A model generated the notes under the pieces. The model saw nothing but the letters and a program-made list of their open reading frames with translations. It was not told the origin of the DNA and ran no database searches. Below are positions 16,468-32,577 of a stretch of 45,593 nucleotides of DNA, in pieces. Origin of the DNA: Nanobdellota archaeon (lineage in GTDB: Archaea > Nanobdellota > Nanobdellia > Pacearchaeales > GW2011-AR1); contig JBBSXO010000007.1 in the NCBI GenBank assembly GCA_038045705.1, positions 1-45,593 on the forward strand. The letters are read 5' to 3'. A program made the position numbers and the translations under genes. The number at the start of each line of letters is the position of its first letter. Within the stretch, counting starts at the first letter, position 1.

Positions 16468-16971
16468 ATGAATAGAAAAGGAAAATCTACATCAAAACAA
16501 ATATTGACAGGCATTGCAGTTTTTGTTCTTGGTTCTTTAATAATCGGAGCTATTAGTGGATTATTTAGTAGCCCTAAACCAATAAGGATTCTCAACACAG
16601 AGCAAGAAGTTTGTCCGCTTGGAACATGGTTTGATTTCAATGGAGAAGGTTCTTTTAGTATAGAACTAAAAAATGAAGGTTCTACCGGAAATCTTTTTGT
16701 AAATATCTCATCTAATGAATTGCTAGTTAAAAATAAAGAACGAGCAATTTTTTCTAATAGTAGTCTTAATCAGCTAGTCACTTCAGCTGGAGATTCACAA
16801 AGATTTAATTTTGAAACTCTAAGAAAAAATCAAGAGAGTGAGAATATTACAATTAGGGTTGATTATGGTTGCACAAAGCTATTTTGCAAAAAATATTATT
16901 TTTGTTGTGAATATTCTAAAGAGGACAAAGATAATTATAATTTAGTAAGAGAAACAAGTTGTATGAACTAA
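16468..16971 (+). CDS. Casposon cargo: membrane-anchored Cys-rich protein
   Basis: N-terminal TM helix, beta-rich body, six Cys. Confidence 0.7.
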   Translation: MNRKGKSTSKQILTGIAVFVLGSLIIGAISGLFSSPKPIRILNTEQEVCPLGTWFDFNGEGSFSIELKNEGSTGNLFVNISSNELLVKNKERAIFSNSSLNQLVTSAGDSQRFNFETLRKNQESENITIRVDYGCTKLFCKKYYFCCEYSKEDKDNYNLVRETSCMN

Positions 16972-18099: not shown

Positions 18100-18623
18100 T
18101 ATTTCATATACTTTACAAGTAAATCTCTATAAGATAAAACTACATTCTTATCCAGATTCTTGAAGAGAGACATATTCATCAAACTTTTGAAGCTACCGTT
18201 TAAATTGCTACCAAAATTATCCCCATTTAGACTTGCTTCATCATCTAAATTCTTGTATTGTTCTATTCCAATATATTTATTTGTCAATAAAATGATATAA
18301 CAATCTCTGTAAGGATAGTCTGTTTCTTTCTTGTAAATTCCATCAGTTCTATACTTTACTTCTACAAAATTTGCATTTCCTTCTTTATCTACAATAATGA
18401 AATCTGGAGCTTTTCTTATATGATTCTTTACATCTCCTTTAAGCAATCTTTCCTTACGAGCAAGAGTCGGACAAGTATTTTCATAGCCATAAGGAATAAC
18501 TTCAAATCCCAAATCTTCAAACATACACTTAACTATGGCTTCAGCAATCCTTCCTTTAACCATTTCTTCTTGTGCCATATTATTCTTTAAAATAACCCAT
18601 TTATATAATCTTAGATTCAACAA
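18099..18623 (-). CDS. Casposon cargo: PD-(D/E)xK nuclease-family protein (likely start 18578)
   Basis: G..AE, PDFII, FVEVK motifs. Confidence 0.75.
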   Translation of the reverse strand: MLNLRLYKWVILKNNMAQEEMVKGRIAEAIVKCMFEDLGFEVIPYGYENTCPTLARKERLLKGDVKNHIRKAPDFIIVDKEGNANFVEVKYRTDGIYKKETDYPYRDCYIILLTNKYIGIEQYKNLDDEASLNGDNFGSNLNGSFKSLMNMSLFKNLDKNVVLSYRDLLVKYMK

Positions 18624-19015
18624 TTAAGATAGTTTACTTTGTTTCCGATACCGCTCTGCATTACTTCTGGATTATGAACACCATTACAGAGATTAATTAT
18701 ATTGTCAATTCCGCTTAATGAAAGTGAAGATATCTTTGTATTTTTAGTAACGGTCACTTCATTATCTGTTCCACTTACAAGCAAATTAACAACATTAGCA
18801 TTATTTACAGTTTTTACTTCGCCAATTCCACTAATAGATACCGTTTGAGTTTGTCCATTATATTGATTTTCAGCACCATAATTAATGGTTGGAGTATTGG
18901 TATCTGTTCTTTCGTAAGTCCCTATTTTTACTCCAAATCCTATCACAAATAATAGAATTACAACTAAGGCTATCCAAAAGACATTCTTCCAGTCATTTTC
19001 CTTATTTTCTTTCAT
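18617..19015 (-). CDS. Casposon cargo: membrane-anchored beta-solenoid (DUF3060-like) protein
   Basis: TM helix followed by repeated SGxxNxV units. Confidence 0.65.
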   Translation of the reverse strand: MKENKENDWKNVFWIALVVILLFVIGFGVKIGTYERTDTNTPTINYGAENQYNGQTQTVSISGIGEVKTVNNANVVNLLVSGTDNEVTVTKNTKISSLSLSGIDNIINLCNGVHNPEVMQSGIGNKVNYLNC

Positions 19016-19073
19016 ATTATCAGTCCACTAATTAATGGATTGCGTCTTTTAAACCTTACCATCTATTAGTGGA

Positions 19074-19298
19074 ATGAGTAGAAGGAAAGGGTTAGATGTA
19101 AAGAAAAAGATTCTCCAAATCCTAAAAGAAGATGGCGAAACGACATTAGGCGAACTAGAAAGAAAAACAAACACTAATAATATAACAATTTTAAGCCATT
19201 TAGAAGAACTTGAGTATTTCGGAAAGGTGCAAATAATCAAACATCAGAAAAGCGAAAAAACTGGACGACCATATACAACCGTCAAATTGAAGAATTAA
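19074..19298 (+). CDS. Winged-helix DNA-binding protein
   Basis: ILQILK..GETTLGELER...ILSHLEELE..G.V...GRP pattern. Confidence 0.8.
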   Translation: MSRRKGLDVKKKILQILKEDGETTLGELERKTNTNNITILSHLEELEYFGKVQIIKHQKSEKTGRPYTTVKLKN

Positions 19299-20197
19299 CG
19301 TTTAATCTTTTCTTTCTCATTCTTCTCGTAATACTCTTCCAAAATCTTATATCTAGTTTCAACATGGAATCTTTCTATTAATATTCCTACAATTATCATA
19401 CCCATACCAATCCAAGTATTAACATTTTCAAATAAATTACCTGACCCGTATCCAGCTGAAAATACTCCTACTCCTATTGAAATTAAAGATACTGACAAAG
19501 TTTCATATTTTGATAATCTTAGTTTATTGAGTTCTATTTTCTTTTCAGCAATCTTATAATCTTCTTCTCTAAGGTTTATTCGAAGAACCCTTATTAATAT
19601 TATAAAAAGAACCATTGTAAGACCAAAAGACAAAGCGAAACTATATTTTCCATTAAACAAGAAGAATATTAATAAAATAACTGAACTAACAATGACTACC
19701 CATCCCCAAAATCCCAAACTTCCTCTAGATTCTTTCATTTTATTATCTGGGTTAATCAAACCTGTCAACTTTTTAAAGTAATTGGACATATTTCTCAAAA
19801 AGAATATTGTTGCTAAAACTGCGGAGGCTAATATTAGGAAGTTAGTTTTCCAACCAGCTTGTATATATTCAGGGAATGCTACAACTGATTTGATAATTCC
19901 TAAAAGAGATAAAGTTATAAAAATTAAGACTATTGTGGAAGTAGTTATGAAATCAAATATAAATCCCTCATATTTTATCTTAATTCTATTGTTAAATCCA
20001 TAGTTAAGTGCTAATACCAAAAAGTAGACTATATACATCCATAGAAGAAAGTCAAAAAATATATTTGATACAAACTTCAATGAAAGTTTTACATTAATTA
20101 TTTCAAATGTCTCTTCTGTAATAGTTTGCTTGATTCCAAAGAAAATAGCCAGAATGCCAGCCATAATTGTTATCCTAATAGTTTCTTCGTTATTCAT
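19295..20197 (-). CDS. Casposon cargo: polytopic membrane protein
   Basis: About 8 hydrophobic segments; ATGA-coupled to cas1. Confidence 0.7.
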   Translation of the reverse strand: MNNEETIRITIMAGILAIFFGIKQTITEETFEIINVKLSLKFVSNIFFDFLLWMYIVYFLVLALNYGFNNRIKIKYEGFIFDFITTSTIVLIFITLSLLGIIKSVVAFPEYIQAGWKTNFLILASAVLATIFFLRNMSNYFKKLTGLINPDNKMKESRGSLGFWGWVVIVSSVILLIFFLFNGKYSFALSFGLTMVLFIILIRVLRINLREEDYKIAEKKIELNKLRLSKYETLSVSLISIGVGVFSAGYGSGNLFENVNTWIGMGMIIVGILIERFHVETRYKILEEYYEKNEKEKIKR

Positions 20198-21384
20198 TTT
20201 ACTTTCAAGAGTTTTTCCTCAACGCTTTTATTCAAACTAAAGGCTTTATCTTCTTTTACCTTATGCTTTAGGTCATGCAAGGTTGCTTTAGAATATCCTA
20301 AGTCTTTCCACTTCTTGTAAGATACTCCTTTGATTATCTCTCTCACTTCATGAGTATCATCTCTGTTTAAATCAAACAAAGGTTCATGTAATTTACAAGA
20401 ACTAACTTTACCTAAGATGAAATGTGCTAGTTCTCTGGTTTGTTCTACTAAAACATTTCCCCAGCCATATTCTTTACCCTTGAAGTTCACTTTTTTACTA
20501 AACCAAATTTGAATCTCTTCCATTAGCTTCTTAGCTCCAGAAGGTCTTAAACGCAGATTGTAGTTTTCAGTTCTGATAAAATCTTTATCTTGCATCTTCT
20601 TTTTTTCAATAGCGGAAATAACAGCTAAATCAATAAGGAATCTAAAAGGTTCTTGTAAGTCATAAGCTAGACTATTACTTCCCATTTTCATTTCGTGTAA
20701 GAAACCAACATGAGCATCTAAACCAACCATATTGATAGCTCTCAAACATTCTGCTTCGAGTATAGCATACCCATAGTTTAACATGCAATTAATTTTATCA
20801 CTAGCTCCGTAAGGCTTTTTAGCATATTCTCTTCTATCAAATTCATAGCTTTCAGGAATGGTCTTTCTAATCTCTTTCCAATAAAGGATAGCTGTTCTTG
20901 CCTCTGCCCTTATTACTTCTGGAATATTACTGGCATCTTCTAACCTATCTTCTTCTGTTAAGAAGTTATAATTTATTTCTGGATATCTTGATTTAAGCCA
21001 ATCAAGTAATATCTTGGAGCGAGTAACCTTAGCTTCAACGAACTTTTTGGCTATCTCCAATCTTAAACTAGAATCCTTATAAGAGGAATATTGTGCAAAT
21101 TTGGTCTTAACTTGAACACTTTCAGGTGGAAGCATCGTAGTAAGTAACTTTCCATCCCAATTAAGAATAGTAACTGCTACGTTGTGTTTGATAAGCCATC
21201 TAATCGCTTCAAGGCTTATATCTCCAGACCTTCCATAGATTACTACGTTATCATAGGGGATTCTTTTAGGTCTAAAGACATGAAGTTTAGGTTCTTCTGT
21301 TGAATATCTACCTTCTTTAACGTAAAGCCTCGCTTTATCAACTGAAAAGTGTATTCCATGCCCATTAAGTAGAAGAAACCTCAT
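20194..21384 (-). CDS. cas1: Casposase (solo Cas1) with C-terminal HTH
   Basis: G.ISLEAIRWL, AEART (catalytic Glu), NCMLNYGYAIL, GLDAHVGFLHE (His), LAYDLQEPFR (Asp/Glu); extra C-terminal HTH; no cas2 or array. Confidence 0.95.
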   Translation of the reverse strand: MRFLLLNGHGIHFSVDKARLYVKEGRYSTEEPKLHVFRPKRIPYDNVVIYGRSGDISLEAIRWLIKHNVAVTILNWDGKLLTTMLPPESVQVKTKFAQYSSYKDSSLRLEIAKKFVEAKVTRSKILLDWLKSRYPEINYNFLTEEDRLEDASNIPEVIRAEARTAILYWKEIRKTIPESYEFDRREYAKKPYGASDKINCMLNYGYAILEAECLRAINMVGLDAHVGFLHEMKMGSNSLAYDLQEPFRFLIDLAVISAIEKKKMQDKDFIRTENYNLRLRPSGAKKLMEEIQIWFSKKVNFKGKEYGWGNVLVEQTRELAHFILGKVSSCKLHEPLFDLNRDDTHEVREIIKGVSYKKWKDLGYSKATLHDLKHKVKEDKAFSLNKSVEEKLLKVK

Positions 21385-21497
21385 GAAAATTCCCCTAAAG
21401 TGTCAAAAATGTCGAAAGAATGAGACAAATGGAATGAATGAAAAACTCGTTTAAGTGGTTTAACTGCATTATGTTCGTTTTGTTTAGTTTGTTTCAT
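21381..21497 (-). CDS. 38-aa coupling/leader ORF (MKQTKQNEHNAVKPLKRVFHSFHLSHSFDIFDTLGEFS)
   Basis: Starts immediately after the upstream stop (TAA-ATG) and ends in an ATGA overlap with cas1. Confidence 0.45.
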   Translation of the reverse strand: MKQTKQNEHNAVKPLKRVFHSFHLSHSFDIFDTLGEFS

Positions 21498-22169
21498 TTA
21501 ATCCTTTAAAATTTTCAAAATCATGTGGGATGGACTCCCTATCATAAGGTGGTCTCCCATTATGGCTTTTTCAATTGAGTCTGGAATGATAAGACTGGTA
21601 AAAATGAAGTCTCTTTTCATATAATAGACTGAATTTCTATATTCTATATTTTTAGGATTATTCTCAACCTCATCTAAAAATTGCTTTCTAAAGTATTTGT
21701 TCTTCCAAAACTCATTCTTAACAGCTTCGTATCTATCCAAATCTTGTTTTGGATTATAACCATTCAATATAGGTTTAAGCGGATAAATTCTTTTAATGGC
21801 TAAAAACTCTATGATTAAAGATTTTATAGAACCTATAGGGTCTGCCCTTATTGGATTCCAAAAGCGAGACAAAACTAATTCCATAAATTCTCTTTCTTCC
21901 TTGTTGAAGTCTCCAATTAAACTTAACTTTGCTCTAAAGAGTTTCTTATTCCCACTAATAACTGACAAGTCTTTTCTTTCTATCCAATTCATATCATCAA
22001 ATTTTTTCAGCCATTTAAGAATTCCAGACCTTGCATTTCTCTTTCCATAAATTTGTTGTGCTAAATCGGAAGGAGATTGGTCTTCTTTTAGGAGCAATCC
22101 AATCATCTTTTTTGGAACTACTTTCTCCAAAATATCCTTATTTTTAGTCTTTGTATTGATTTTTCTCAT
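21498..22169 (-). CDS. Casposon HTH-domain regulator
   Basis: N-terminal wHTH-like LLLKEDQSPSDLAQQIY...ILKWLKKF..MNWIE. Confidence 0.65.
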   Translation of the reverse strand: MRKINTKTKNKDILEKVVPKKMIGLLLKEDQSPSDLAQQIYGKRNARSGILKWLKKFDDMNWIERKDLSVISGNKKLFRAKLSLIGDFNKEEREFMELVLSRFWNPIRADPIGSIKSLIIEFLAIKRIYPLKPILNGYNPKQDLDRYEAVKNEFWKNKYFRKQFLDEVENNPKNIEYRNSVYYMKRDFIFTSLIIPDSIEKAIMGDHLMIGSPSHMILKILKD

Positions 22170-22249
22170 GTTAATACGATGGTGTGTATTTTATATACAA
22201 GTATACTATTCAGATACCTATATATAAATGTTTCTCTATCATAAAGAAT
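22170..22249. promoter_or_regulatory. Divergent promoter between the cas1 and polB operons
   Basis: 80-bp gap with TATA-like boxes (TTTATATA, TATATAAA) and palindromes AGTATACT and TGTAT-N5-ATACA. Confidence 0.55.
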
Positions 22250-22426
22250 ATGACGATAAATCAACTAAATTGCCAAAGATGTAACCATATTTGGATACCA
22301 AGAATTGAACCTGTAAAAGAGTGTCCGAAATGCAAATCTAGAATTTGGAATAAACCAAAATCTATTTCGGAATTGTTTAAACAAATGTTCGGAGGCTTAA
22401 ATGGTAAAACTAAAAACGTTAGCTAG
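22250..22426 (+). CDS. Small Zn-ribbon protein
   Basis: CQRCNHIW...CPKCKSRIW; ATG at 22250 preferred over GTG at 22184. Confidence 0.8.
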   Translation: MTINQLNCQRCNHIWIPRIEPVKECPKCKSRIWNKPKSISELFKQMFGGLNGKTKNVS

Positions 22427-22910
22427 AGTTGCTTGGGCTAAATTAAGTTCAATACAGAAAAGTCAAAGAAACAAAGCTTTTGAAATTCTAAGGATGATGA
22501 AAAAAGGAGACTCTTTTACTTCAGCTTTGAAAGAAGTAGATATAAGTTCGCTCTTAGCAAAGAAGCATCTGGGTAGAGCTATTTTCAAAAAAGCTGGAAG
22601 ATTCAAAGCCACTAAATCAGATTCTATTCAAAGAAGAATAGAATTTTATAGCAAAACAAAAGGAAGAATCTTCATCACTGTAAGAAATTCTAGAGATGCT
22701 TCTCTAATTGGAGAATACTTCTCTGCTGTAAGAAAAGCAAAACCTACTGGTGAAACTTCTGAATTAGATAGATTCAAAGGAAAAATAGTAATAGATGCTG
22801 ATGGCGAAGCTCATAAATTCGAGACTGACATTGATAAGATTTTTGAAATTGAAGAATCAATAGAAGAACCAGAATTCAGAGATGATATTTATGAAGAGGT
22901 TTCCTTATGA
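22401..22910 (+). CDS. Basic hypothetical protein, probable HTH
   Basis: GGAGG RBS; LRMMKKGDSFTSALKEVDIS helix-turn-helix-like segment. Confidence 0.7.
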   Translation: MVKLKTLARVAWAKLSSIQKSQRNKAFEILRMMKKGDSFTSALKEVDISSLLAKKHLGRAIFKKAGRFKATKSDSIQRRIEFYSKTKGRIFITVRNSRDASLIGEYFSAVRKAKPTGETSELDRFKGKIVIDADGEAHKFETDIDKIFEIEESIEEPEFRDDIYEEVSL

Positions 22911-23263
22911 ATAAAAAAGAAATTTCAGATAAATTCTTTAGCCTTATTAGAAATAAAAAAGAACTAACACCTATGTGCTTTCTTTGTGGAGAAGACAGCG
23001 AGACAGTTCTTAGAAAGTTAGAGGCACATCACGTATTTGGAAAGGCTATTTCCGATGAAATGGTTAACTTGTGTTTGAATTGTCATACAAAGATAACAGA
23101 TAAACAGAATATAGTAAAAACAAAAAACAGAGTGGAGTTTTCTTCAGAAGATGAGAAGCTAGGTTTTCAACTAATATGCTCTGGTAAAATGTTAGAATTA
23201 ATTGGTGAGAGATGGCAAGATATAGGATTCAAATTTATACAAAATGGACAACTTATTTCTTAG
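22907..23263 (+). CDS. HNH endonuclease
   Basis: CFLCGE...LEAHHVFG...LCLNCH. Confidence 0.85.
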   Translation: MNKKEISDKFFSLIRNKKELTPMCFLCGEDSETVLRKLEAHHVFGKAISDEMVNLCLNCHTKITDKQNIVKTKNRVEFSSEDEKLGFQLICSGKMLELIGERWQDIGFKFIQNGQLIS

Positions 23264-25835
23264 AACTTATACGAGATTGAAAAAGAAGAAAAAGAAGAAA
23301 GAGTTTCACAAACCAGATTTTTATCAAGACAAAGCAGTTTTTGTGTTTGATACTGAAACAACTACAGACTTCAAAATGGGATTAAAAGTTGGTTATTTTC
23401 AATTATATATTAATAATTTATTAATTCACCAAGGTCTATTTTACAAAGAAGCAACAAATGAAGAAATAAAAATAATATATAGATATGCTAAAAGAAACAA
23501 TATTAAGGTCTATAAGGTAGAAGATTTTAGAAAATATGTCTTTTATCCAGTTGTTTTTAACTTTAGAGCTTTATGTTTAGCATATAATCTTCCCTTTGAT
23601 ATACCTAGAATATCCATTAGACACACACAAGCCAAAAAGAAAGAAAGTGGAGGTTTTTCATTTATTTTATCTGAAAATAGTGCTTTACCTAGAATTGTTT
23701 CTAAACAACTTAACTCTGAAACTACTACGGTTAGATTCTCACAAAGCCTATACAATAAACATTTCTTTAATGGAAACTTTCTTGATGTGCAAAAATTAGC
23801 TTGTGTTTTACTTGAAAGAAAGAAGATTAGTTTAGAAGAAGCTTGTGAAGTTCTAAAAACAAAGACCAGAAAGAAAGAAACGGATAAGCATGGAAAGATA
23901 ACTTTTGAATATTTAGATTATTTAATTAAGGACGTTAGAGCTACTTATGAAGTTTATCTAAAATTAAAAGAAAGATTTGAAAGTTATCAAATCAATATTC
24001 CATTAACTGATATATTTTCTTCAGCATCTTTGGGTAAAAATGCATTAAAACAAATGGGGATTAGTTCGTTTCATGAGCAAAATCCAGATTTCAAGTTTGA
24101 AATTTTGGGTAATGTAATGATTTGCTATTATGGTGGAAGAGTTGAGGTTTTAATGCGAAAAGAACCAGTGAAGGTATCTGTTCTTGACTTTACCTCTATG
24201 TATCCAACAATTACTTTGCTAATTGGTCTTTGGGATTTTATTATTGCAGATAGAATAGAATATCAATATTGCACTTCAGAAATTATAGAATTATTAAAAA
24301 AGATAACATTAGAAGACCTAAGAAATCCTGAAACATGGAAAAAACTAGCTGTAATTGTTAAAATAAAGCCAAATGCCGAAGAACTTCCCGTAAGAAGTAT
24401 CTACAATTCAGAATCAAAAACACACTCAATTGCAATAAATAAACTAACTTTCAATGGAGAGATTTTTTATTCATTAGCAGACATTATTAGACATAAGCTA
24501 CAAACTGGTAACTTTCCAGAGATTATCGAAGCAATTAAATTTGTGCCACTTGGTAAACAGCAAACTTTACAAAAAACACAAATTCTTGGAACGGAATTTA
24601 ATCCATCAGAAGAAAACTTTATTAAGAAATTAGTTGAAGAGAGATATAAAATAAAAGAAAGTAATCCAGAAAAAGCAGATTCTCTAAAAATAATAGCTAA
24701 TTCAACTACTTACGGAATATTCATACAACTTGACCCAGAGGATGAAGAAAAAGAATTGGATGTTTATGGAATTGAGAAATTTAGTTCAAAGTCCATTTTT
24801 GAAAAAGAAGGAGAATATTACAATCCTATAATTGCTGTATCTATAACTGCTGGAGCTAGATTATTATTGACTATGGCTGAATTGTTTCTTCAGTCCAGAG
24901 GCTATAAACATTATTACATGGACACAGATAGTATATTTGTTCCACCAGAAGTCGCAGATGAATTAAGCGATTTCTTTCAAACTCTCAATCCTTATGATTT
25001 GGGCATTAGAGTTTTAAAAATTGAAAAAAGAGACAAATGGCTTTATGCTATAGCCTCTAAGCGTTATGTTTTATATGATTTAGTTAATGGAAAGATAGTA
25101 ATTGACCCAGACCCTCAAAAGAAAGAGTATAAATTACACGGTCTTGGACATATAACTAATCCATTTGGAAAAGATGAAAAGTATTGGCACTATAAAATAT
25201 GGGAAGACATACTCAAATTACATTATGGACAAATTACTTATAAAGACTTATTTGAAAAATATTCAAAAATGTTTGTAGTTAGTAAAATGTCAATTACAAA
25301 TTGGAAAATTATGAATTTGTTCAAGAATGTAAATGGTGCTACACCATATAATTTCTACCTTAGAGGGATTGGACGTAAACTAAAGGATAAGGTGATTAAA
25401 CCTATTGCTCCATATACTAAAGATTATCAGAGTGTTGTTTATGAGCCTTTCATTAATTTAGAAAATGGAGAAGTTATGCAAGGAGAAGAAAATTGGAAAA
25501 CTTTGTATAACCAAATAATTGACTATATCAACCATCCAGAATCTAAGTTTGATGGTGATATTGGTTTATTGAAACGCAAACATGTAAGACCAAAAGAGAT
25601 TGTATGGATTGGGAAAGAATCAAACAAGATAAATGAAGATTTGACTGAAGAAATCAAAGCTACCACATACAAGGATATTGGCAAAGATAGGAAAATTATT
25701 CTAAATATGAGTAATCAAGAAGCTGAAAAGAGAGATGTTTCAAGACCTACTTTATGGAAAATTCAGAAAAGACTTAGAAAGAACCCTAAGAAGTTTAATT
25801 GGAAGACTAGGTCTGTTAAGAGGTTAATCACATAA
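23244..25835 (+). CDS. polB: Casposon family-B DNA polymerase
   Basis: Exo I FDTET, Exo II YNLPFD, Exo III YLIKDV, YYGGR, motif A DFTSMYP, motif B KIIANSTTYG, motif C YMDTDS; C-terminal HTH-like tail. Confidence 0.95.
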   Translation: MDNLFLRTYTRLKKKKKKKEFHKPDFYQDKAVFVFDTETTTDFKMGLKVGYFQLYINNLLIHQGLFYKEATNEEIKIIYRYAKRNNIKVYKVEDFRKYVFYPVVFNFRALCLAYNLPFDIPRISIRHTQAKKKESGGFSFILSENSALPRIVSKQLNSETTTVRFSQSLYNKHFFNGNFLDVQKLACVLLERKKISLEEACEVLKTKTRKKETDKHGKITFEYLDYLIKDVRATYEVYLKLKERFESYQINIPLTDIFSSASLGKNALKQMGISSFHEQNPDFKFEILGNVMICYYGGRVEVLMRKEPVKVSVLDFTSMYPTITLLIGLWDFIIADRIEYQYCTSEIIELLKKITLEDLRNPETWKKLAVIVKIKPNAEELPVRSIYNSESKTHSIAINKLTFNGEIFYSLADIIRHKLQTGNFPEIIEAIKFVPLGKQQTLQKTQILGTEFNPSEENFIKKLVEERYKIKESNPEKADSLKIIANSTTYGIFIQLDPEDEEKELDVYGIEKFSSKSIFEKEGEYYNPIIAVSITAGARLLLTMAELFLQSRGYKHYYMDTDSIFVPPEVADELSDFFQTLNPYDLGIRVLKIEKRDKWLYAIASKRYVLYDLVNGKIVIDPDPQKKEYKLHGLGHITNPFGKDEKYWHYKIWEDILKLHYGQITYKDLFEKYSKMFVVSKMSITNWKIMNLFKNVNGATPYNFYLRGIGRKLKDKVIKPIAPYTKDYQSVVYEPFINLENGEVMQGEENWKTLYNQIIDYINHPESKFDGDIGLLKRKHVRPKEIVWIGKESNKINEDLTEEIKATTYKDIGKDRKIILNMSNQEAEKRDVSRPTLWKIQKRLRKNPKKFNWKTRSVKRLIT

Positions 25836-25867
25836 ATTCTTATATATCTATAAAAATAATCATTTTC

Positions 25868-26053
25868 ATGACTGAAGCAACAAAAAAGAAATCTGAAAAG
25901 GATTTGTCCATGTCTGGACAAAGAGATGAATCTCAAATAATGAAATATTTGGTAGGAGTTCCAGAGTCTTTATCTGGCAAAAAGAAACAGCCTGTAGCTG
26001 ACACATCACAAGGTTCTGAAAATCCAAAAGATATCCCTACAGACCAAGATTAA
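25868..26053 (+). CDS. Small hydrophilic hypothetical protein
   Basis: 61-aa ORF with TATA-like box upstream; overlaps the next gene convergently. Confidence 0.5.
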   Translation: MTEATKKKSEKDLSMSGQRDESQIMKYLVGVPESLSGKKKQPVADTSQGSENPKDIPTDQD

Positions 26054-26559
26054 AGAGAGTATATCCCAAAAATTTCTGAAGTATTAAATTGTATGGTCTT
26101 CCAATCAAGTTCTATTTCTTTGTTATTTTTATCTACCTCGATAATTTTATTTGAAGAATTACCTTTAATAGTAATGAAATAAGGATTTGATGAAGAAATA
26201 ACTGCCTTAAACCTCTTCCCATTCTTCAATTTAATCAAAAACCATTTATCTTTTTGTTCAGTAGTTCTTGAAAGTAACGCCCATATCCAAAGAGCTATGA
26301 CTAAAATAAATGTCAGCCAAAAATAAAAAACCCAAAAATTCCATTCTAGCCTATTTTGAAAGTATAATGATAAGAGGGTAATAAAACCACCACTTACAAA
26401 GAGGAATAAAGCTAATTCCCATTTTTCTTGAAACTTGTCAAATTTTGTAAATCTTTCAAGGAAGTAAAAGACAATATAGGGGAGACCAAGCAAAATAAGA
26501 ATATGCAATAAAGTTATTTCTGTAAATCTAACATCTAAAAAATCTGGTGAGATAACCAT
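26050..26559 (-). CDS. Casposon cargo: 3-TM protein with small beta-barrel (Sm-like) C-terminus
   Basis: Three TM helices followed by IKLKNGKRFKAVI. Confidence 0.65.
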   Translation of the reverse strand: MVISPDFLDVRFTEITLLHILILLGLPYIVFYFLERFTKFDKFQEKWELALFLFVSGGFITLLSLYFQNRLEWNFWVFYFWLTFILVIALWIWALLSRTTEQKDKWFLIKLKNGKRFKAVISSSNPYFITIKGNSSNKIIEVDKNNKEIELDWKTIQFNTSEIFGIYSL

Positions 26560-26610
26560 AAAAATGATTCAAAAAACTCTTATTTAAGGATATGTGGAAT
26601 AGAAAAAGAG

Positions 26611-27636
26611 TTATTTTGATAACGACTTCAAAGCATCCTCTGAATTTGAGTAAACATTCAGAAGGGCATTATCTTTGCTGATTCTATTAAATTCCCTAAC
26701 ATATTCCTCATCAGCTACAAAAACTTCTTCTTCTGGGCATAATTCAATCAGAATTTTTGGGTGAATTGGGAGATAAACTCTTATCTCTTTTCTATCTCCG
26801 TAATCCCAATACATTATTACTATGCCTGTGTCTGTCAATACAAATGGGGTTGCAGTATGATTCACAACAAACCTTATCTTGTTTTTATCAAGTCCTCTTC
26901 CTTTTAGGAATCTATCTGTTAAGTTAGCATCTATTATTTCTGAAGAATGCTTATCTGGGTGAGTGCGGATAAAATCTAAGTCGGTTTCCACTTTATTTAT
27001 TTCGGATTCAAGAAGGCTTTTAGTTTCATCAGAGTTCCTCATTTCAGTCAGCAAGTTAGGATTCTTTTTTATTTTTCTTTTCCAGTTCATTTCTATTTTC
27101 CTTCTAGCCTTACTGTTCAGTCCAACACCTCTTTCTCTAATAATTTTCTTGATATCTGGCTCTCTTGCATGCTCTTTATCCATAATTATCTTTTCAATAT
27201 TCTCTGGTAGTCTAAGAGACACTTCATGGACTTGCTTTCCAATTTCTTTAAATTTAACAGTCCTTACATGCTGTATTTCTATGTATTTCTTGACAAAATC
27301 TGATTCTTCTGGTGAAAGCTTAACATCTTTTCCATCAAGTATTGGTTGGATAACCTTCCCTATAATAGATGCCATTGGATGCTCTACATTTACGCTTAGG
27401 TTTTCCTCTAAAGTTTTTTCTAGATTCTTAAACAAAGGATTGACCTTTATGTGTTTAAAAGTTGCTTTCAATTCTCCTAAAGATTTATTGCTATAAAAGT
27501 TTCCTTCTTGAAGCTGATAGTAATGGGGAATGGAATTTGAGACACTATTGCTTTTCTTGCTGTAGAAAGAAATCTTTCCATTTGGGTCAGCAAATCTCTT
27601 TATTATTAATCGTGGAACAAAATGGTGTTTCGTCAT
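26611..27636 (-). CDS. DUF4238-family protein
   Basis: N-terminal HHFVPR..I..F, QHVRT, FVLTD, YLPIHPK motifs. Confidence 0.8.
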   Translation of the reverse strand: MTKHHFVPRLIIKRFADPNGKISFYSKKSNSVSNSIPHYYQLQEGNFYSNKSLGELKATFKHIKVNPLFKNLEKTLEENLSVNVEHPMASIIGKVIQPILDGKDVKLSPEESDFVKKYIEIQHVRTVKFKEIGKQVHEVSLRLPENIEKIIMDKEHAREPDIKKIIRERGVGLNSKARRKIEMNWKRKIKKNPNLLTEMRNSDETKSLLESEINKVETDLDFIRTHPDKHSSEIIDANLTDRFLKGRGLDKNKIRFVVNHTATPFVLTDTGIVIMYWDYGDRKEIRVYLPIHPKILIELCPEEEVFVADEEYVREFNRISKDNALLNVYSNSEDALKSLSK

Positions 27637-27677
27637 AAAATCAAGCCATCTAGAACCTATTTATGAATTATGGTCTC

Positions 27678-27712
27678 AAAAGTGTTGCCTTTTTCGGACA
27701 TATCTATAACCC
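27678..27712 (-). repeat. Right terminal inverted repeat (35 bp)
   Basis: AAAAGTGTTGCCTTTTTCGGACATATCTATAACCC. Confidence 0.97.
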
Positions 27713-27726
27713 GGCGTACTTTTTAT
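27713..27726 (+). repeat. Right target-site duplication
   Basis: GGCGTACTTTTTAT, identical to 16395-16408. Confidence 0.97.
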
Positions 27727-27801
27727 TGACAACAAAAATGAGATTTTGAAAAACAGGGCGTTGAACTATTTTTACATTGTTTTGAAGATGTTGTACTAAA
27801 C

Positions 27802-27843
27802 TTGTACATAAAACCGCCCAAGAATATACCAAAATGGTCTCAT
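27802..27843 (+). repeat. Intergenic repeat, copy A
   Basis: 39/42 identical to 29883-29924. Confidence 0.85.
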
Positions 27844-27918
27844 TGCTGACTAGACTTTCTACCCCTACATTTGTTATATAAAACAAACATTTATAGATAT
27901 GTAGTGTCAAGATAATAC

Positions 27919-28809
27919 ATGGTGAATATAAGAGAAAAGAAGACTGGGAAGCAAACATATTATTATCTTGAACATAGTATGAGGGAAGGTAGTAAAATCA
28001 TTAAGAAAGAAAAATATCTTGGAAAAGAGATACCTAAGGAGATTGACAAGATAAAAAGAGCGTTTGTTATAGAGTCATACAAAGAAAAATGGTTTAATGA
28101 TTTTGAAAAAATAAAAAATAATTACTCCAAAGAGCAAAAGATAATGCCTCCTTCTTCCAAGGCTAAGCAGAAACAGACGTTTGCAGTAAAATTTACCTAT
28201 AACACTCAAAAAATAGAAGGTTCTTCTTTGAGTTTAAAAGATACTTCCAACCTAATTGAAAAAGGAATAACTCCTTCGGAAAAACCAATAAGTGATGTTA
28301 TTGAAGCAGAAGAACACAATAAAGTATTTTATGAAATGCTATCTTATGAAAAAGAATTATCTTTACAGATTGTACTTTATTGGCACAAAAAACTATTTGA
28401 GAAAACTAAGCCAGATGTAGCTGGAAAAGTTAGAAATCATCAAGTAGGCATTTCTTTAAGTAAATATACTCCCCCTATGCCCTCAGAATTGGATTTTTTA
28501 ATAAAAGATTTTTTTGATTGGTACAATAAAAGCAAAAATAAGTTAAATCCTGTAGAATTGGCTGCTCTAGTGCATTTAAAATGGGTAACCATTCATCCTT
28601 TTGGAGATGGCAATGGAAGAATTTCAAGATTAATGATGAATTTTGTTTTGCATAAGAATGGATACCCTATGTTAGACATACCTTACACAAAAAGAAATAG
28701 CTATTATACATCTCTTGAAAGAAGCCAAGTTAAGAAAGATGACTCCCCTTTTCTTAATTGGTTTTTTAAGAGATATATTAAAAATTGCGAAGGTTATTCT
28801 AAGTCGTAA
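27919..28809 (+). CDS. Fic-family protein
   Basis: Canonical HPFGDGNGRISR motif; YNTQKIEGS inhibitory-helix-like motif. Confidence 0.93.
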   Translation: MVNIREKKTGKQTYYYLEHSMREGSKIIKKEKYLGKEIPKEIDKIKRAFVIESYKEKWFNDFEKIKNNYSKEQKIMPPSSKAKQKQTFAVKFTYNTQKIEGSSLSLKDTSNLIEKGITPSEKPISDVIEAEEHNKVFYEMLSYEKELSLQIVLYWHKKLFEKTKPDVAGKVRNHQVGISLSKYTPPMPSELDFLIKDFFDWYNKSKNKLNPVELAALVHLKWVTIHPFGDGNGRISRLMMNFVLHKNGYPMLDIPYTKRNSYYTSLERSQVKKDDSPFLNWFFKRYIKNCEGYSKS

Positions 28810-28926
28810 TATACTCCTCAATAAATCGCAAATTTGCACCTATCACCTTGACCTCGACAAGACTTTTAAACTCTTTAATCCTTGAAGAATTAGATATTCC
28901 GTGAAGGAATCATAAAATAAATATTT

Positions 28927-28974
28927 ACACGCCCATGAGGATAACACAAACATGGACTGCTTGGTCTGGGAGTA
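28927..28974 (+). repeat. Intergenic repeat, degenerate copy B
   Basis: CGCCCA...TGCTTGGTCTGGGAGTA; shares 12-bp TGCTTGGTCTGG with 29924-29935; 12/13 match to the tRNA-Ser 3' end. Confidence 0.6.
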
Positions 28975-29007
28975 AATTTACGAACCAGAAAAATAATTTA
29001 TATAGTC

Positions 29008-29892
29008 TTGAATCCTAGAATATGCATGAGACAGCGAGCTAAGATTGCTATTGCAGTTCTCTTGGTTGCTGTACTGGGTCTTGTTCTTTTCTTTTTTAAC
29101 CGCGAAGAAGCTTCAAACGAAATAAGTAATTCTCCAGAAATGGAAGAGGGTACGTTAGCTGATAGCATCTCTGAAGGCATGAATGAAGATGACACTGAAT
29201 ATGTTCAAAGTGCAGAAGTAAGTTGGGATTTTGATTTTAATAATGAGGTTTGGAAATCTTCTGGTGATGTTCCTTTGTGTCCTGAACCCTTGGTCATTGA
29301 TTCTCCTGTGGATGTCTCTCTAGCGACAGGCATTTTATATCCGGGACAAGAAAGGGGCGGAGATTATAAGCCTCATGGCGGTTTCCGATTTGACAATCAA
29401 CAAACAAATGGTATTGATGTAGTTGCTCCAATGGAAGGGAATCTATTTCGCGCTAGCCATTATTTAGAAAATGGAGAAGTACAATATTTGCTATTTTTCA
29501 TGAATGACTGTGGAATTATGTATAAGTTTGATCATCTCCGAACTCTTACAGAAAAGTTTGAGAAATTATTTGAAAATTTACCACCTCCACAAGAAGGCGA
29601 TTCTAGAACGACAGAAATTTATGAAGTATCCGCTGAAAAAGGGGAGTTAATTGCTACAGAAGTTGGTTTTAAAGAGATTAAAAATGTCGCTGTAGATTTT
29701 GGGCTTTATGATTTAAGAAAAACAAATGAAGCTTCAAAAGATCAAGGGTGGGCAACTGAACATTCAGATGAAAAAGAATTCGGATTTAACGCGCTCTGCT
29801 GGCTTGATAATTTGCCTGAACCTCCTAGAAGCACTGTAAAAGGTTTACCCGGCTCTGGGTCTGAAGGTAAGAAAAGCGATTATTGTAGATAA
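29008..29892 (+). CDS. Membrane-anchored M23-peptidase-like protein (degenerate motifs)
   Basis: TM helix and acidic linker; HGGFRFD, VVAPMEG, FDHL, KGELIA. Confidence 0.6.
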   Translation: MNPRICMRQRAKIAIAVLLVAVLGLVLFFFNREEASNEISNSPEMEEGTLADSISEGMNEDDTEYVQSAEVSWDFDFNNEVWKSSGDVPLCPEPLVIDSPVDVSLATGILYPGQERGGDYKPHGGFRFDNQQTNGIDVVAPMEGNLFRASHYLENGEVQYLLFFMNDCGIMYKFDHLRTLTEKFEKLFENLPPPQEGDSRTTEIYEVSAEKGELIATEVGFKEIKNVAVDFGLYDLRKTNEASKDQGWATEHSDEKEFGFNALCWLDNLPEPPRSTVKGLPGSGSEGKKSDYCR

Positions 29893-29940
29893 AACCGCCC
29901 GAGAATATATCAAAATGGTCTCATGCTTGGTCTGGCGTTC
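29883..29940 (+). repeat. Intergenic repeat, copy C
   Basis: Matches copy A in its 5' part, and copy B plus the tRNA 3' end in its 3' part. Confidence 0.85.
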
Positions 29941-29995
29941 TTATTTGCCAGAAATTAGTAAAGTTTAAATAGTTCTATTTTATAACATATGTTAT

Positions 29996-30580
29996 ATGAA
30001 GAAACCGTACAGTCTTAATAAAGAACAAATGTTATATGTAGAGACTGCTAAGCAAAAAGTCCTTCAACTTTTTTATAAATTCCCAGATAAGGAATTCAGC
30101 CTAAGTGACATTGCTAAAGAAGCAGGAGTGGCAAAAGCCAACTTAGGAGCCATTTTAGCTTCACTGGAAACTATTGATCTTATAAAAATAGAGAGATTAA
30201 CAAAAATTTGGAGGGTTAAAGCCAATCAAGAAAATTGGATGTTTAAGAGAGCTAAGATAGTTTACAATCTTAATTTCATCTACCAAAGCGGATTAGTAGA
30301 ATTTCTTAACCAGTCTTACAATAATCCTAAAGCTATTATCCTTTTTGGAAGTTTTAGAAAAGGAGAAGATACGTCTAGTTCAGATATAGACATAGCGATT
30401 GAATCAGACGTTGCTAAAGATTACAAAGTACTTGGATTGATGGCACTTTCAGATTTTGAAAAAGTGATAGGAAGAAGTATTCAAATTCACGAATTCAATC
30501 GCAAATCCATAGATGATGGATTATTCAATAATATAGCAAATGGCATAGTACTAATGGGCTTCTTGGAGGTTCGTAAATGA
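29996..30580 (+). CDS. wHTH-fused minimal nucleotidyltransferase (MntA-like antitoxin)
   Basis: N-terminal HTH; LFGSFRKGE...SDIDI. Confidence 0.88.
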   Translation: MKKPYSLNKEQMLYVETAKQKVLQLFYKFPDKEFSLSDIAKEAGVAKANLGAILASLETIDLIKIERLTKIWRVKANQENWMFKRAKIVYNLNFIYQSGLVEFLNQSYNNPKAIILFGSFRKGEDTSSSDIDIAIESDVAKDYKVLGLMALSDFEKVIGRSIQIHEFNRKSIDDGLFNNIANGIVLMGFLEVRK

Positions 30581-31002
30581 ACATTGATTTTAATAGATTG
30601 GTAAAAGAGAAAAGACTACGTCTGAGAGAAGCTAATAAAGATAAAATCAAAAGCTTAATTGAATCTGCAAAAAATAATGTATATGTTGTTTCTTCCCTTT
30701 CTATAAATGAGAAAAATGCTACAGTTATATTTAGAGAAATTTATGAATCAATTAGACAACTCGGAGATGCGCAATTTTGGATTTTAGGTTACGAACCATT
30801 AGACCATTCAATTAGTTTAGATTCTCTTAAAGATCTAAATATAAAAGATAAAGTTAAGCTAAATTACTTAGACAGATTTAAGCAAATACGTCACGATGCT
30901 AATTATCGCGGTTTTAATGTTTCTGCATCACATGCCAAAGAGATATTAGATTTTTGGAATGTTTGTTCTCATGAGATTATAGATTTTCTTCTCAAAAAAT
31001 AG
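30577..31002 (+). CDS. HEPN-domain protein (toxin partner)
   Basis: ATGA-coupled to the MNT gene; GY....H and RHDANY (Rx4Y variant). Confidence 0.75.
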   Translation: MNIDFNRLVKEKRLRLREANKDKIKSLIESAKNNVYVVSSLSINEKNATVIFREIYESIRQLGDAQFWILGYEPLDHSISLDSLKDLNIKDKVKLNYLDRFKQIRHDANYRGFNVSASHAKEILDFWNVCSHEIIDFLLKK

Positions 31003-31068
31003 AAATTGAGATAGTTTGTTCTTGCACGTGATCTGGGCGTTATATCCCCATTAGACAATGCTTTTGAA

Positions 31069-32031
31069 CTACTTATTAAGTGGCTTACTGGCACCTTTTG
31101 ATTTATCAAACCAAGAGAAGTAACTTAGAGCACCTGCTCTTCCACTTTCAATTAGGTCTTCTTTTTGCTCAGATTTTAATTCAAACTGTGTTGCACTAAT
31201 GCCCAGGCTATCAATATAAATTGTCCTATGCCAATCTCTATCACTTAAGTGGGTTTTATTGGCAAAATCAATAAGTCCACCAATAAGAGTTTGAATATAG
31301 GACTGAAGAGAATTTACTTTCAAACTAGGCAATGGCTCATTTTTTATTTGGTTGTTTATTTCTTCTGGACTGTCTACCCTAAAACCGAGAGTCTCTTTAT
31401 TGTAATAATTTTCTTTTTTTGTTTTAACATATTTTTCATCATCAAACAGATTTATTGGATAATTGTAATATACTCCTCCGTCAACATATAGAGAATTCTT
31501 ATGGTTAAATGCCTGAAAAAATAGTGGTATACCCATAGATATCTGCACCGCATCTGCTATGGACATATTTGGAGTTGTTTCGTTGCTTAAAATAACATGC
31601 GCCTTGTGATTTACATCTGTTCCAATAATATAGAGCTTGCGCATGCCATTATTCTCTTTTTCATGAAGCTGTGAGAATGTGATATCTTTGCTTACTTTTT
31701 CTGAAAGAACATTATCAAACCATTTTCTAAAAACAGAACACTTATACCACCCATATTTTCGAAAAAGTCTGACTATATTTTGAATAATAAAAAAAGAATC
31801 ATCTTTAAAATCATTAAAATTAACTTCATCTAGTTTTTTTCTTATTTCAAGAGGCGTAAAACCAACAGCTAGTAATGTTGCTATTATTGCGCCTGCAGAA
31901 GTTCCTGCGACTCTTTCTATAGATTGCAATATTCCATTTTCTTCCAGAACATGAAGAGCACCTACATAGGCAATTCCTTTTACTCCACCCCCTTCAAAAA
32001 CAAGGTTTTTGAAAGCATATTGTCCCTTCAT
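31069..32031 (-). CDS. Patatin-like phospholipase
   Basis: EGGGVKG, GTSAG, DGG motifs. Confidence 0.93.
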   Translation of the reverse strand: MKGQYAFKNLVFEGGGVKGIAYVGALHVLEENGILQSIERVAGTSAGAIIATLLAVGFTPLEIRKKLDEVNFNDFKDDSFFIIQNIVRLFRKYGWYKCSVFRKWFDNVLSEKVSKDITFSQLHEKENNGMRKLYIIGTDVNHKAHVILSNETTPNMSIADAVQISMGIPLFFQAFNHKNSLYVDGGVYYNYPINLFDDEKYVKTKKENYYNKETLGFRVDSPEEINNQIKNEPLPSLKVNSLQSYIQTLIGGLIDFANKTHLSDRDWHRTIYIDSLGISATQFELKSEQKEDLIESGRAGALSYFSWFDKSKGASKPLNK

Positions 32032-32124
32032 ATTATTCTTTGTTGTTTAGACATATAAATATTTGTAGCCAGATTATTTGATGTAATACATTTTTAAATA
32101 AAGCTTTACATTAACTATTAAAGG

Positions 32125-32577
32125 TTGGAGATGAATAGAAAATTTGACCATATTGATAAAGGAATAACTGATTGGCTTAAAGGGTATGGATATTACTTCT
32201 TGAAATATTCTCTTGCTCTTGTTTTTATTTGGTTTGGAATCTTGAAGCCACTTGGTTTAAGCTCTGCAAATGATCTTGTGACTAAGACTGTTTATTTTGT
32301 AGACCCTAGTTGGTTTGTGCCTTTCTTAGGGCTATGGGAGGTTGCGATTGGAGTTTGTATTTTGTTTAGACCACTTTTAAGAGTTGGATTGCTTTTAATG
32401 GCTTTACAAATGATTGGAACTTTCTTACCTTTGATTTTGCTCCCAGAGGTAATTTATATAAAGTTTCCATTTGTTATGACGCTTGAAGGTCAATATATAA
32501 TAAAGAACTTGATATTGATTGGTGCTGGGATGGTTGTTGGGAGCCATGCCCGCGATAGAGAGAAGAAAAAGATATGA
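32125..32577 (+). CDS. DoxX/YkgB(DUF417)-like membrane protein
   Basis: FIWFGILK, E..IG, GQYIIKN motifs. Confidence 0.8.
   Translation: MEMNRKFDHIDKGITDWLKGYGYYFLKYSLALVFIWFGILKPLGLSSANDLVTKTVYFVDPSWFVPFLGLWEVAIGVCILFRPLLRVGLLLMALQMIGTFLPLILLPEVIYIKFPFVMTLEGQYIIKNLILIGAGMVVGSHARDREKKKI

Follow-up and report, generated by a model that had tools for sequence, protein, structure and literature searches.

Which process places unrelated genes in a row behind a casposon and separates them by related sequences that resemble the end of a tRNA gene? The question is raised by positions 27727–32075 of the stretch of DNA analyzed here (the window), which comprises 45,593 nt of contig JBBSXO010000007.1 from a Nanobdellota archaeon (GCA_038045705.1). 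We propose that the array probably arose by tandem accretion of integrase-less modules at the tRNA-Ser(GCT) gene through site-specific recombination, and that the casposon came later, as a separate event. The unit that recurs between the modules begins with an arm, which spans about 95 nt and includes a BRE/TATA-like box and a leader, followed by a copy of the tRNA 3′ end of 12–13 nt, the core. The features of the locus are the following:

16315–16398, + strand: tRNA-Ser(GCT) (ARAGORN; Rfam tRNA, 56.6 bits)
16409–27712, no strand assigned: casposon of 11.3 kb (38-nt inverted ends; Cas1)
27727–27766, + strand: P′-like arm, a conserved segment after a core (comparison with relatives)
27767–27859, + strand: unit 1, type A arm (nhmmer 7.6e-21; model R1 3.7e-19; alignment A1)
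27919–28809, + strand: Fic-family gene, cargo (Pfam Fic 1.1e-21; PADLOC SoFic and PDC-S04)
28849–28979, + strand: unit 2, type B arm (nhmmer 8.8e-18; R1 4.1e-16)
29026–29892, + strand: 288-aa cargo gene, family unassigned, M23-like as a lead only (Atlas neighbours)
29882–29943, + strand: unit 3, type A arm, 3′ half only (nhmmer 5e-10; R1 5.7e-9; 39/42 to unit 1)
29996–30580, + strand: MNT nucleotidyltransferase gene, cargo (Pfam Polbeta and NTP_transf_2; PADLOC PDC-M05A 9e-20)
30577–31002, + strand: HEPN-like partner gene, cargo, overlapping the MNT gene (PADLOC PDC-M05B 1.6e-6)
31003–31039, + strand: fourth arm, of a different type and without promoter box (core match; homology to genome G012)
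31069–32031, − strand: patatin-like phospholipase gene (Pfam 2.7e-34; PADLOC phospholipase effector)
32125–32577, + strand: DoxX-like gene (63 nt after tRNA-Ser(GCT) in genome G009)

The order of the modules is tRNA, arm, Fic, arm, M23-like, arm, MNT/HEPN-like, arm, patatin, and host flank, and the core sequence that recurs downstream corresponds to 16387–16398, the last 12 nt of tRNA-Ser(GCT). Among the modules named in an earlier note on this DNA, Fic, MNT, and patatin are confirmed by Pfam, whereas HEPN is recognized only by a PADLOC candidate-pair model and the M23-like gene is without Pfam support. This 288-aa gene matches neither Pfam nor PADLOC, and its DNA finds no match in any of 41 relatives; the M23-like lead comes from one Atlas neighbour cluster, at rank 5, in which 58% of the members carry Peptidase_M23. 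The Fic gene DNA is 86–88% identical in G003:C26 and G001:C25 (genome and contig, respectively). The patatin gene is the outermost variable module, shows 90% DNA identity in G012, and is absent from the empty site of G009. With the DoxX-like gene, the conserved host flank begins and the island ends on its right side.

The repeats are present in the array and tied to tRNA ends. The identity of 39 in 42 nt (93%) between 27802–27843 and 29883–29924 (repeat family D3) that had been noticed earlier was recovered at these positions, which are the only two sites genome-wide when up to 8 mismatches are allowed; the real unit is longer, however, at about 110 nt. TGCTTGGTCTGG is found exactly at 28958 and 29924 and at no other site of the genome, with nine matches in total at up to one mismatch, and the tRNA-end-like motifs lie at 28962, 29928, and 31029, as claimed. 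The motif is not scattered: in a genome-wide search, the strong matches to the unit were three in the window and one at C6:95143–95259, and apart from one site on C6 the array repeats are absent elsewhere in the 844-kb genome. In 120 other genera of the family, represented by one genome each, the unit gave only weak and short matches, of which the strongest (8.9e-4) covers 20 nt.

The last 12 nt of the tRNA match 16 places in the genome (both strands, up to 2 substitutions); two are the tRNA-Ser genes themselves and two lie within 27.7–31.1 kb, oriented as the tRNA. A hand calculation, with a background of 12 matches in 1.69 Mb of strand sequence, gives about 0.024 expected matches on the tRNA strand of this 3.4-kb stretch. 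Within an edit distance of 2 from these 12 nt, direct repeats of the tRNA 3′ part occur downstream of the intact tRNA at 28960, 29926, and 31028, all on the + strand. The core of unit 2 (28960–28972) matches the tRNA end at 11 of 13 positions and that of the fourth arm (31028–31039) at 10 of 12; the third copy, the core of unit 3 (29926–29937), differs by one substitution and one deletion. The core of unit 1, upstream of Fic at about 27846–27855, is badly decayed and nearly unrecognizable. The promoter-like box of unit 2 spans 28853–28872, the stop codon of the 288-aa gene falls inside unit 3, and the type B arm has a relative in G001:C25. The fourth arm is homologous to the stretch that follows a different Fic gene in G012, as testified by a local score of 39 against 19.6 ± 3.7 for shuffled sequences, none of which reached 39 in 500 trials.

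Such an arrangement recalls an integron. The repeats would then be attC-type single-strand hairpins recombined by an integron integrase, in an attC cluster lacking that enzyme: the co-oriented single-gene modules of about 1 kb have related sites between them, and toxin-antitoxin and defence-type cargo is typical cassette content. Integrons and integrase-less attC clusters have been reported in DPANN-group archaea and share with the window the tandem short co-oriented genes, the related sites, and the lack of an adjoining integrase (PMC9668308). The folding data point the other way. The CGCCC…GGGCG inverted repeat described previously does occur in the three window copies, but the Asp-type copy introduced below lacks it, and the stretch folds no better than shuffled sequences. 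RNAalifold returned no consensus pair on 10 copies, 58% of the cells of the CGCCCA/TGGGCG helix are paired, no compensatory change was seen in either named helix, and the overall share of paired cells in the two was reached by 466 of 500 shuffles. Single-strand DNA folds of 8 strands gave z-scores from −1.53 to +0.17. Moreover, the 3′ end of the site varies with the tRNA (Ser, Asp, and Gly) in exact copies, which is not an attC behaviour; GTT-type end motifs match the attC consensus in some copies only (by eye); and the four PF00589 matches of the genome (C1, C5, C6, and C8) are all on contigs other than that of the array. With no hairpin signal, sites that copy a tRNA end, and a tRNA gene instead of attI as the anchor, the window departs from integron arrays, and the integron-like or att-hairpin origin put forward in the earlier note is very unlikely.

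The casposon itself is well delimited. Its inverted ends (16409–16446 and 27675–27712) are 38 nt long and 97% complementary, its Cas1 gene lies at 20194–21384 on the − strand (Pfam 7.8e-61), and it is flanked by a 14-nt duplication (16395–16408 and 27713–27726), exact copies of which exist nowhere else in the genome. The duplication extends across the end of the tRNA and the conserved segment of the arm, and segment 27727–27766 would directly follow the tRNA end if the casposon were removed. The same segment is found after a Ser-type core in G001:C25 and after a different core in G011:C4, and a similar one, by eye, after the tRNA-Ser(GCT) gene of G016. We read the casposon as a separate, later insertion into the tRNA-Ser(GCT) end. 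The reverse relation, in which casposons that came and went several times would have left the copies behind as former target duplications or as mimics of the target, draws on the position of the casposon at this same tRNA end and on the tandem casposons with a common duplication in Methanosarcina (PMC4779613). Solo inverted ends are lacking, however: when up to 6 mismatches are allowed, the opening 24 nt of the inverted end match the two casposon ends and three unrelated places on other contigs, and none in the array. At up to 3 mismatches, none of the matches to the 14-nt duplication coincides with a module border, the recurring core reaches 8 nt upstream of the duplicated segment, and units with Asp and Gly cores occupy casposon-free sites. 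Casposase-driven accretion, also suggested in the earlier note, is in our judgment extremely improbable.

Comparison with relatives instead favours growth of the island at the tRNA. The distance from tRNA-Ser(GCT) to the DoxX-like gene is 63 nt in G009, 598 nt in G006, 987 nt in G013, 2728 nt in G012, and 15727 nt in the window; G009 has an empty site at the very place where the window holds 15.7 kb. That unrelated modules were acquired one after another at a single tRNA site, as first surmised, is supported by this variable gap and by the co-oriented tRNA-end copies inside it. Extra exact tRNA-end copies are present in G011 (two, of 20 and 15 nt) and in G002 (one, of 14 nt). The difference between G000 and G012 spans exactly from the tRNA end to the start of the common fourth arm. 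The Fic block common to three genomes begins inside a unit, with shared mutations in its core, and not at the core, and it ends at the stop codon. No unit adjoins the MNT/HEPN relatives of G016 and G035. The cognate tRNA was found upstream, on the same contig and in the same orientation, at 5 of the 12 unit loci examined.

No tyrosine recombinase is encoded in the window, as the earlier note had stated and as tblastn and a PF00589 search confirmed, and no PF00589 match lies beside the array. The missing enzyme class is supplied by contig C6, on which a member of this repeat family is physically connected to the gene for a tyrosine recombinase. The C6 unit terminates with the final 10 nt of tRNA-Asp(GTC), copied without mismatch; this 10-mer is found genome-wide just in this unit and in the tRNA gene (C6:65574). 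The recombinase gene, which encodes 385 aa, begins about 180 nt past the unit (C6:95430; PHROG integrase, 2.6e-15). A paralogue, 62% identical, sits directly after tRNA-Asp (C6:65667), with MT-A70, PrgI-family, and TraG/VirB4-like ATPase genes downstream. The C6 recombinase proteins are not reached by the Pfam Phage_integrase model; they were identified through PHROGs and through XerA, which matched weakly (0.02). The unit is tied to integrase loci: both on C6 and in relatives, a unit with a tRNA-Asp or tRNA-Gly core abuts the arm preceding this recombinase gene family, the members of which sit directly after tRNA genes. In G012:C13, a unit whose 11-nt Asp core is exact lies 6.66 kb beyond tRNA-Asp, and a Type III restriction-modification pair separates the two; the unit of G001:C17 has a Gly-type core. 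By eye, the stretch past the C6 core is homologous to that between tRNA-Ser(GGA) and the 76% identical integrase gene of G010:C17.

Across the genus, 13 integrase matches were detected in 8 of 17 genomes. Six of the 13 loci directly follow a tRNA according to ARAGORN and a seventh does by eye, with less than 50 nt of upstream sequence at two loci. In five integrase loci, neither the unit nor a core repeat was found in the 1.9 to 18.4 kb of sequence that follow the tRNA. The tRNA-Asp flanks of seven relatives gave no match to G000, no far end was found for the C6 elements, and no Ser-linked integrase was found in the genome, which is 91% complete. The window modules carry cores matched at 10–11 of 12–13 positions, one being decayed, and no integrase; the related integrase genes on C6, one of them followed by PrgI and TraG/VirB4-like genes, sit with Asp-type cores.

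The arm has properties that could also suit a small-RNA gene or leader. In 8 of the 10 copies that were aligned, the BRE/TATA-like box keeps a constant spacing, and at 3 of the 13 integrase loci it also stands about 30 nt ahead of the start of the integrase gene, which makes it probably a promoter; the units are mostly located 50–70 nt upstream of a co-oriented gene. The unit would then primarily specify an RNA of about 75 nt with a T-rich end, copied together with its neighbours, and the tRNA-like end would serve RNA function and not recombination. Rfam 15 at the gathering threshold, however, recognizes only the two tRNAs in the window; it gives nothing credible in 27600–32200 at E up to 5, and in five related loci it finds only a tRNA. 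The unit has neither consensus structure nor covariation, its last 12 nt change with the tRNA and are then followed by the integrase-side arm, and certain units face a gene on the opposite strand. A primary RNA role is unlikely, and it is compatible with a function of the unit as an att site.

Tandem accretion at the tRNA would proceed as follows. The repeats would be attachment-site junctions, with arms borne by the elements, that site-specific integration has left at the 3′ end of tRNA-Ser(GCT). A genus-specific family of elements with tyrosine recombinases would insert at tRNA 3′ ends; at each insertion, the tRNA end would be restored from the element's own copy, and the older copy, with everything behind it, would be displaced downstream. 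Repeated insertions, followed by loss of the integrase part, would yield a co-oriented array of integrase-less modules, and the casposon would enter last, into the junction of tRNA end and arm, by its own Cas1 chemistry. That the genus integrases made the array and that the events took this order we infer from sequence; the modules may perhaps still be mobile. A bolder extension, to which we give only modest credence, would make the units working sites of a tRNA-att cassette system, with modules of about 1 kb, an outward promoter arm, and a 12-nt core, which integrases on conjugative-type elements would capture, stack, and shuffle in trans; core swaps would retarget the arm to Ser, Asp, or Gly tRNA, in a functional analogue of integrons by which DPANN-type archaea would hoard defence and toxin-antitoxin genes. 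Should the small modules turn out to move in trans, they would form a compact archaeal system of gene capture that is open to direct testing.

An array of this type is a known kind of structure and an ordinary route of genomic-island growth. In Sulfolobus, She and colleagues reportedly described integrase-mediated insertion of plasmids and viruses into tRNA genes, which leaves tRNA direct repeats and traps foreign genes; the SSV-type integrase gene is said to be split on integration. The window likewise has tRNA direct repeats, but no split integrase gene was seen in it. At tRNA-Leu of Methanosarcina mazei, a casposon and the tyrosine-integrase elements MGE1/MGE2 share one tRNA end; the casposon target overlaps the att site, and the casposon arrived after the other element (PMC4779613). 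This is a precedent for the window, which has the same layout. In M. mazei the neighbour is an intact element with integrase and replication genes, whereas the window, part of a very small archaeal genome, has four or five modules that lack an integrase, measure about 1 kb, and are each delimited by the conserved arm of about 110 nt. The present locus is a second case of casposon and tyrosine-integrase elements on one tRNA end.

A bacterial parallel is provided by the ssrA islands of Dehalococcoides, several of which follow one another behind a single small RNA gene. A direct repeat of the 3′ end of that gene closes each island, and a conserved motif immediately precedes every repeat; many carry accessory genes without an integrase, and islands without integration module have been proposed to be cis-mobilizable elements (PMC3146451). 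These islands are many kb long and use a tmRNA target and a serine-type (CcrB-like) integrase. The window differs by its tRNA target, the linked tyrosine recombinase, its modules of one or two genes, and one arm family with Ser, Asp, and Gly cores.

A puzzling repeat pattern is probably accounted for by an ordinary mechanism, the enzyme class of which was found on another contig. In this little-studied lineage of very small archaeal genomes, a tRNA-targeting integrase family reuses its arm with different tRNA cores, and tRNA-Ser and tRNA-Asp are hot spots for the build-up of defence-type genes (Fic, MNT/HEPN-like, patatin, and Type III restriction-modification). As a separate observation, eight DNA runs contain the stretch.

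The source genome (G000) measures 844 kb in 10 contigs with about 32% G+C, the window being its complete contig C7 of 45.6 kb. Nanobdellota is the label of the nearest archaeal Atlas cluster to one window ORF; BRE/TATA promoter-like boxes are visible by eye upstream of genes, and introns are present in tRNA genes of close relatives. These three features point to an archaeon whose genome is very small. The stretch is covered by eight DNA sequencing runs from two studies; none of the runs listed is recorded as RNA. A complete-looking casposon of 11.3 kb lies directly at the 3' end of tRNA-Ser(GCT) and precedes the array of Fic, M23-like and MNT/HEPN-like genes (27.7–31.1 kb).

Features of the tRNA-Ser(GCT) gene and the casposon
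16315–16398, tRNA-Ser(GCT) gene
16395–27726, casposon including its duplications
16395–16408 and 27713–27726, exact 14-nt duplication
16409–16446 and 27675–27712, inverted ends of 38 nt, 97% complementary
20194–21384, minus strand, casposon Cas1 gene (7.8e-61)
26611–27636, DUF4238 gene at the right end of the casposon

The 863-aa casposon ORF (23244–25835) gave no polymerase match in a Pfam search.

The repeats reported between the array genes in the earlier note were borne out. The 42-nt repeat matches at 39 of 42 positions and is found at these two places only in the genome, with up to 8 mismatches allowed; the 12-mer TGCTTGGTCTGG is exact at 28958 and 29924 alone, genome-wide; and the tRNA end recurs in two array copies on the tRNA strand, with at most 2 substitutions, and in a third with 1 substitution and 1 deletion. 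Searching both strands of the whole genome with the last 12 nt of tRNA-Ser(GCT), at up to 2 substitutions, yielded 16 matches, comprising two tRNA-Ser genes, two sites in the 3.4-kb array and 12 background sites. From this background we calculate about 0.024 matches expected by chance on the tRNA strand of the array, and chance similarity was rejected. The cargo identities held for Fic, MNT and patatin; the HEPN partner is called by a PADLOC pair model alone, and the M23-like assignment is tentative.

Comparison with copies from four congeneric relatives shows that these repeats belong to a unit of about 110 nt. It opens with a box like an archaeal promoter (…CTCGACAAT.CTTATAAA…), continues with a leader some 70 nt long and closes with a 12–13-nt copy of a tRNA 3' end, hereafter the core. 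Type A is found upstream of Fic and again, as its 3' half alone, after the M23-like gene; type B follows Fic, and a fourth arm (the putatively element-borne part of a unit), lacking the box, follows the HEPN-like gene. The half-size third unit runs into the 3' end of the M23-like ORF and looks like a deletion scar. Columns 54–72 of alignment A1 (window 27794–27812), within the leader, contain a direct repeat, TTGTAY-N5-TTGTRY, whose halves are spaced by roughly one helical turn; it also forms a 5-bp palindrome in some copies, and in type B copies different short palindromes occur close to this position. These leader elements may be protein-binding sites; the short palindrome has no covariation support. 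Upstream of the MNT/HEPN pair lies a separate conserved stretch with a palindrome (TTATAACATATGTTATA; window 29957–29995, L015 7460–7491 and L006, the last two being loci of other genomes). It is kept at 94–97% in genomes G016 and G035, where no unit adjoins the pair, and probably serves as an operator within the promoter of the pair.

The earlier note had proposed that the array grew by serial gene capture, with the repeats acting as integron-like sites or att-like hairpins. An attC nature of the repeats is rejected: they have neither a consensus structure nor covariation, including at the inverted repeat that the note described, their DNA hairpins fold no better than shuffled sequences, and the sites copy tRNA ends. 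That the unit is an RNA gene or a leader is a role that could coexist with one as an att site. In three of the 13 loci of the integrase family described below (L038, L045 and L039, on G013:C1, G010:C1 and G014:C1), the box with which the unit opens (…CTCGACAAT.CTTAAAA…) precedes the start codon of the integrase gene by about 30 nt, and for this reason the box is probably a promoter. Rfam, at gathering and permissive thresholds, gave no match for the repeats, and consensus folding revealed no structure. The box alone is not specific, with short versions elsewhere, e.g. upstream of a tRNA on contig C8 and on C2.

A profile of nine copies gave strong E-values in the source genome only at the three copies of the window and at a single copy on contig C6. 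With ten copies, a sequence-only covariance model gave 31 matches (E ≤ 0.01), spread over 12 of the genus's 17 genomes, and 120 other genera of the family, one genome each, yielded only weak, short matches. This distribution argues against a promoter or terminator element scattered genome-wide, a possibility raised in the same note, and that reading was rejected. A degenerate 24-letter pattern of the unit found no match in the viral contigs scanned and six in metagenome contigs: two agree in length with the contig of the window and, most likely, with G004:C129, three closely resemble copies from G003, being nearly identical to them, and one matches the unit in part. The metagenome contigs scanned offered no new genomic context.

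The copy on contig C6 (95143–95259) links the unit to an integrase. Its core reproduces without mismatch the final 10 nt of tRNA-Asp(GTC), not the tRNA-Ser end, and this 10-mer occurs in the genome only in the tRNA gene (65574) and in the unit. About 180 nt past the unit starts a gene of 385 aa, whose product matches a PHROG integrase (2.6e-15) and, weakly, XerA, with no match in Pfam. A paralogue 62% identical to it lies directly after tRNA-Asp and is followed by MT-A70, PrgI-family and TraG/VirB4-like ATPase genes, a set like that of an integrated element of the conjugative type. Since the sequence beyond the C6 core, on its right, can be matched by eye as a homologue of that between tRNA-Ser(GGA) and a 76% identical integrase gene on G010:C17, the junction reads as arm, core, integrase-side arm, integrase. 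Two successive insertions into tRNA-Asp would give this order. The two paralogues are 29.6 kb apart, and between them there are also several large ORFs without known family, a HEPN gene and a second DUF4238 gene. The region (C6:65500–96600; L083 and L084) probably consists of two tandem integrated elements. For the right ends of these elements, the tRNA-Asp flanks of seven relatives were compared and none matched G000. Elsewhere in this genome, of otherwise 32–35% G+C, contig C5 carries G+C-rich stretches at 72–75 kb with a PF00589 match (72260–72784), which may be foreign or mis-binned DNA.

For the integrase family, 13 matches are spread over 8 of the 17 genomes. Six loci come directly after a tRNA gene that ARAGORN calls (Ser-GGA, Ser-GCT, Gly-CCC, Asp-GTC and Gly-GCC twice), and a seventh follows, by eye, an intron-bearing tRNA-Gly; Ser-linked integrase genes are those of G001:C11 and G010:C17. 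Two others have less than 50 nt of upstream sequence and one is the C6 unit junction. Searching 1.9–18.4 kb after the tRNA at five loci for the far end of the element revealed neither a unit nor a core repeat. On G012:C13, tRNA-Asp is followed, after 6.66 kb, by a unit whose last 11 nt copy the tRNA end exactly; the stretch between lacks an integrase gene and encodes the methylase and restriction subunit of a Type III system. One unit each lies 190–240 nt after tRNA-Ser(GGA) on G012:C13 and G007:C35, and the units of G015:C61 (Ser-type core) and G001:C17 (Gly-type core) each precede the arm known from other places, where it comes after tRNA genes bearing an integrase. The copies in these four genomes fit the two-insertion reading of C6. 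A cognate tRNA lies upstream, on the same contig and strand, in 5 of the 12 unit loci examined, the remaining loci being mostly on short contigs.

At 6100–6300 of L016 (G011:C4) there is a tRNA-like 3' end that ARAGORN does not call. Its last 12 nt recur exactly 70 nt downstream, and the conserved arm segment comes next; the same locus holds two tRNA-Gln(CTG) genes about 900 nt apart. In G003, the 43 nt after tRNA-Ser(GCT) at the end of C12 (L062) are identical to the stretch after a unit core on C106 (L012), and the assembly probably broke at this repeated junction.

We consider it quite probable that the repeats are att junctions at the tRNA end, and a live, trans-acting cassette system, in which the modules would still move, rather unlikely. 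The window belongs with its two closest precedents as the same kind of structure: the M. mazei tRNA-Leu site, where casposons and tyrosine-integrase elements use one tRNA (PMC4779613), and the islands lying in tandem at ssrA in Dehalococcoides, which all end in an ssrA-end repeat with a conserved motif before it (PMC3146451). Many of these islands are without integrase and have been proposed to be cis-mobilizable elements (PMC3146451). Peculiar to the window are its very small modules, the conserved arm of about 110 nt with a promoter-like box, and the reuse of one arm with Ser, Asp and Gly cores.

Casposase-driven accretion, the other route put forward for the array, is rejected, as there are no solo inverted ends and no duplication copies at the module borders. 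Without the casposon, a 40-nt segment would come directly after the tRNA end in G000. The same segment follows cores on G001:C25 and G011:C4, the latter a different core, which argues that the casposon entered a junction already part of an integrated element. In M. mazei the casposon likewise came second (PMC4779613).

Both flanks of the tRNA-Ser(GCT) site are conserved in the genus, the right one comprising DoxX-like and VKOR genes.

Distance from tRNA-Ser(GCT) to the DoxX-like gene
G009, 63 nt
G006, 598 nt
G013, 987 nt
G012, 2728 nt
G000 (window), 15727 nt

The site is a hot spot, and G009 carries its empty allele. In G012, another Fic gene, whose product shares 125 of 286 residues, lies between the tRNA and the fourth arm, which in G000 follows the HEPN-like gene; the alignment of this arm scores 39 against 19.6 ± 3.7 in shuffles, none of 500 reaching 39. 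As both genomes have the same fourth arm with other content before it, they differ exactly from the tRNA end to that arm. A Fic block common to G000, G003:C26 and G001:C25 (86–88% DNA identity) fits less well: it starts inside a unit, core with common mutations included, and ends at the Fic stop codon. It was passed on as a frozen block, not cut at its core. Also awkward for the att reading are the half-size third unit, the MNT/HEPN relatives of G016 and G035 with no adjoining unit, the five integrase loci lacking a unit or core repeat in the stretch searched, and the right ends of the C6 elements, for which no relative's flank matched.

Two small inserts after tRNA-Ser(GCT) in G011 (L063, C15) are closed by exact 20- and 15-nt copies of the tRNA end, and one in G002 (L064, C135) by an exact 14-nt copy. 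At about 85–125 nt, these inserts are too small to be elements; those of G011 hold CTGATGA twice and short hairpins. Between the patatin and DoxX-like genes of the window, positions 32063–32080 resemble, by eye, the tRNA-Ser 5' end and upstream bases, a likeness that may be due to chance.
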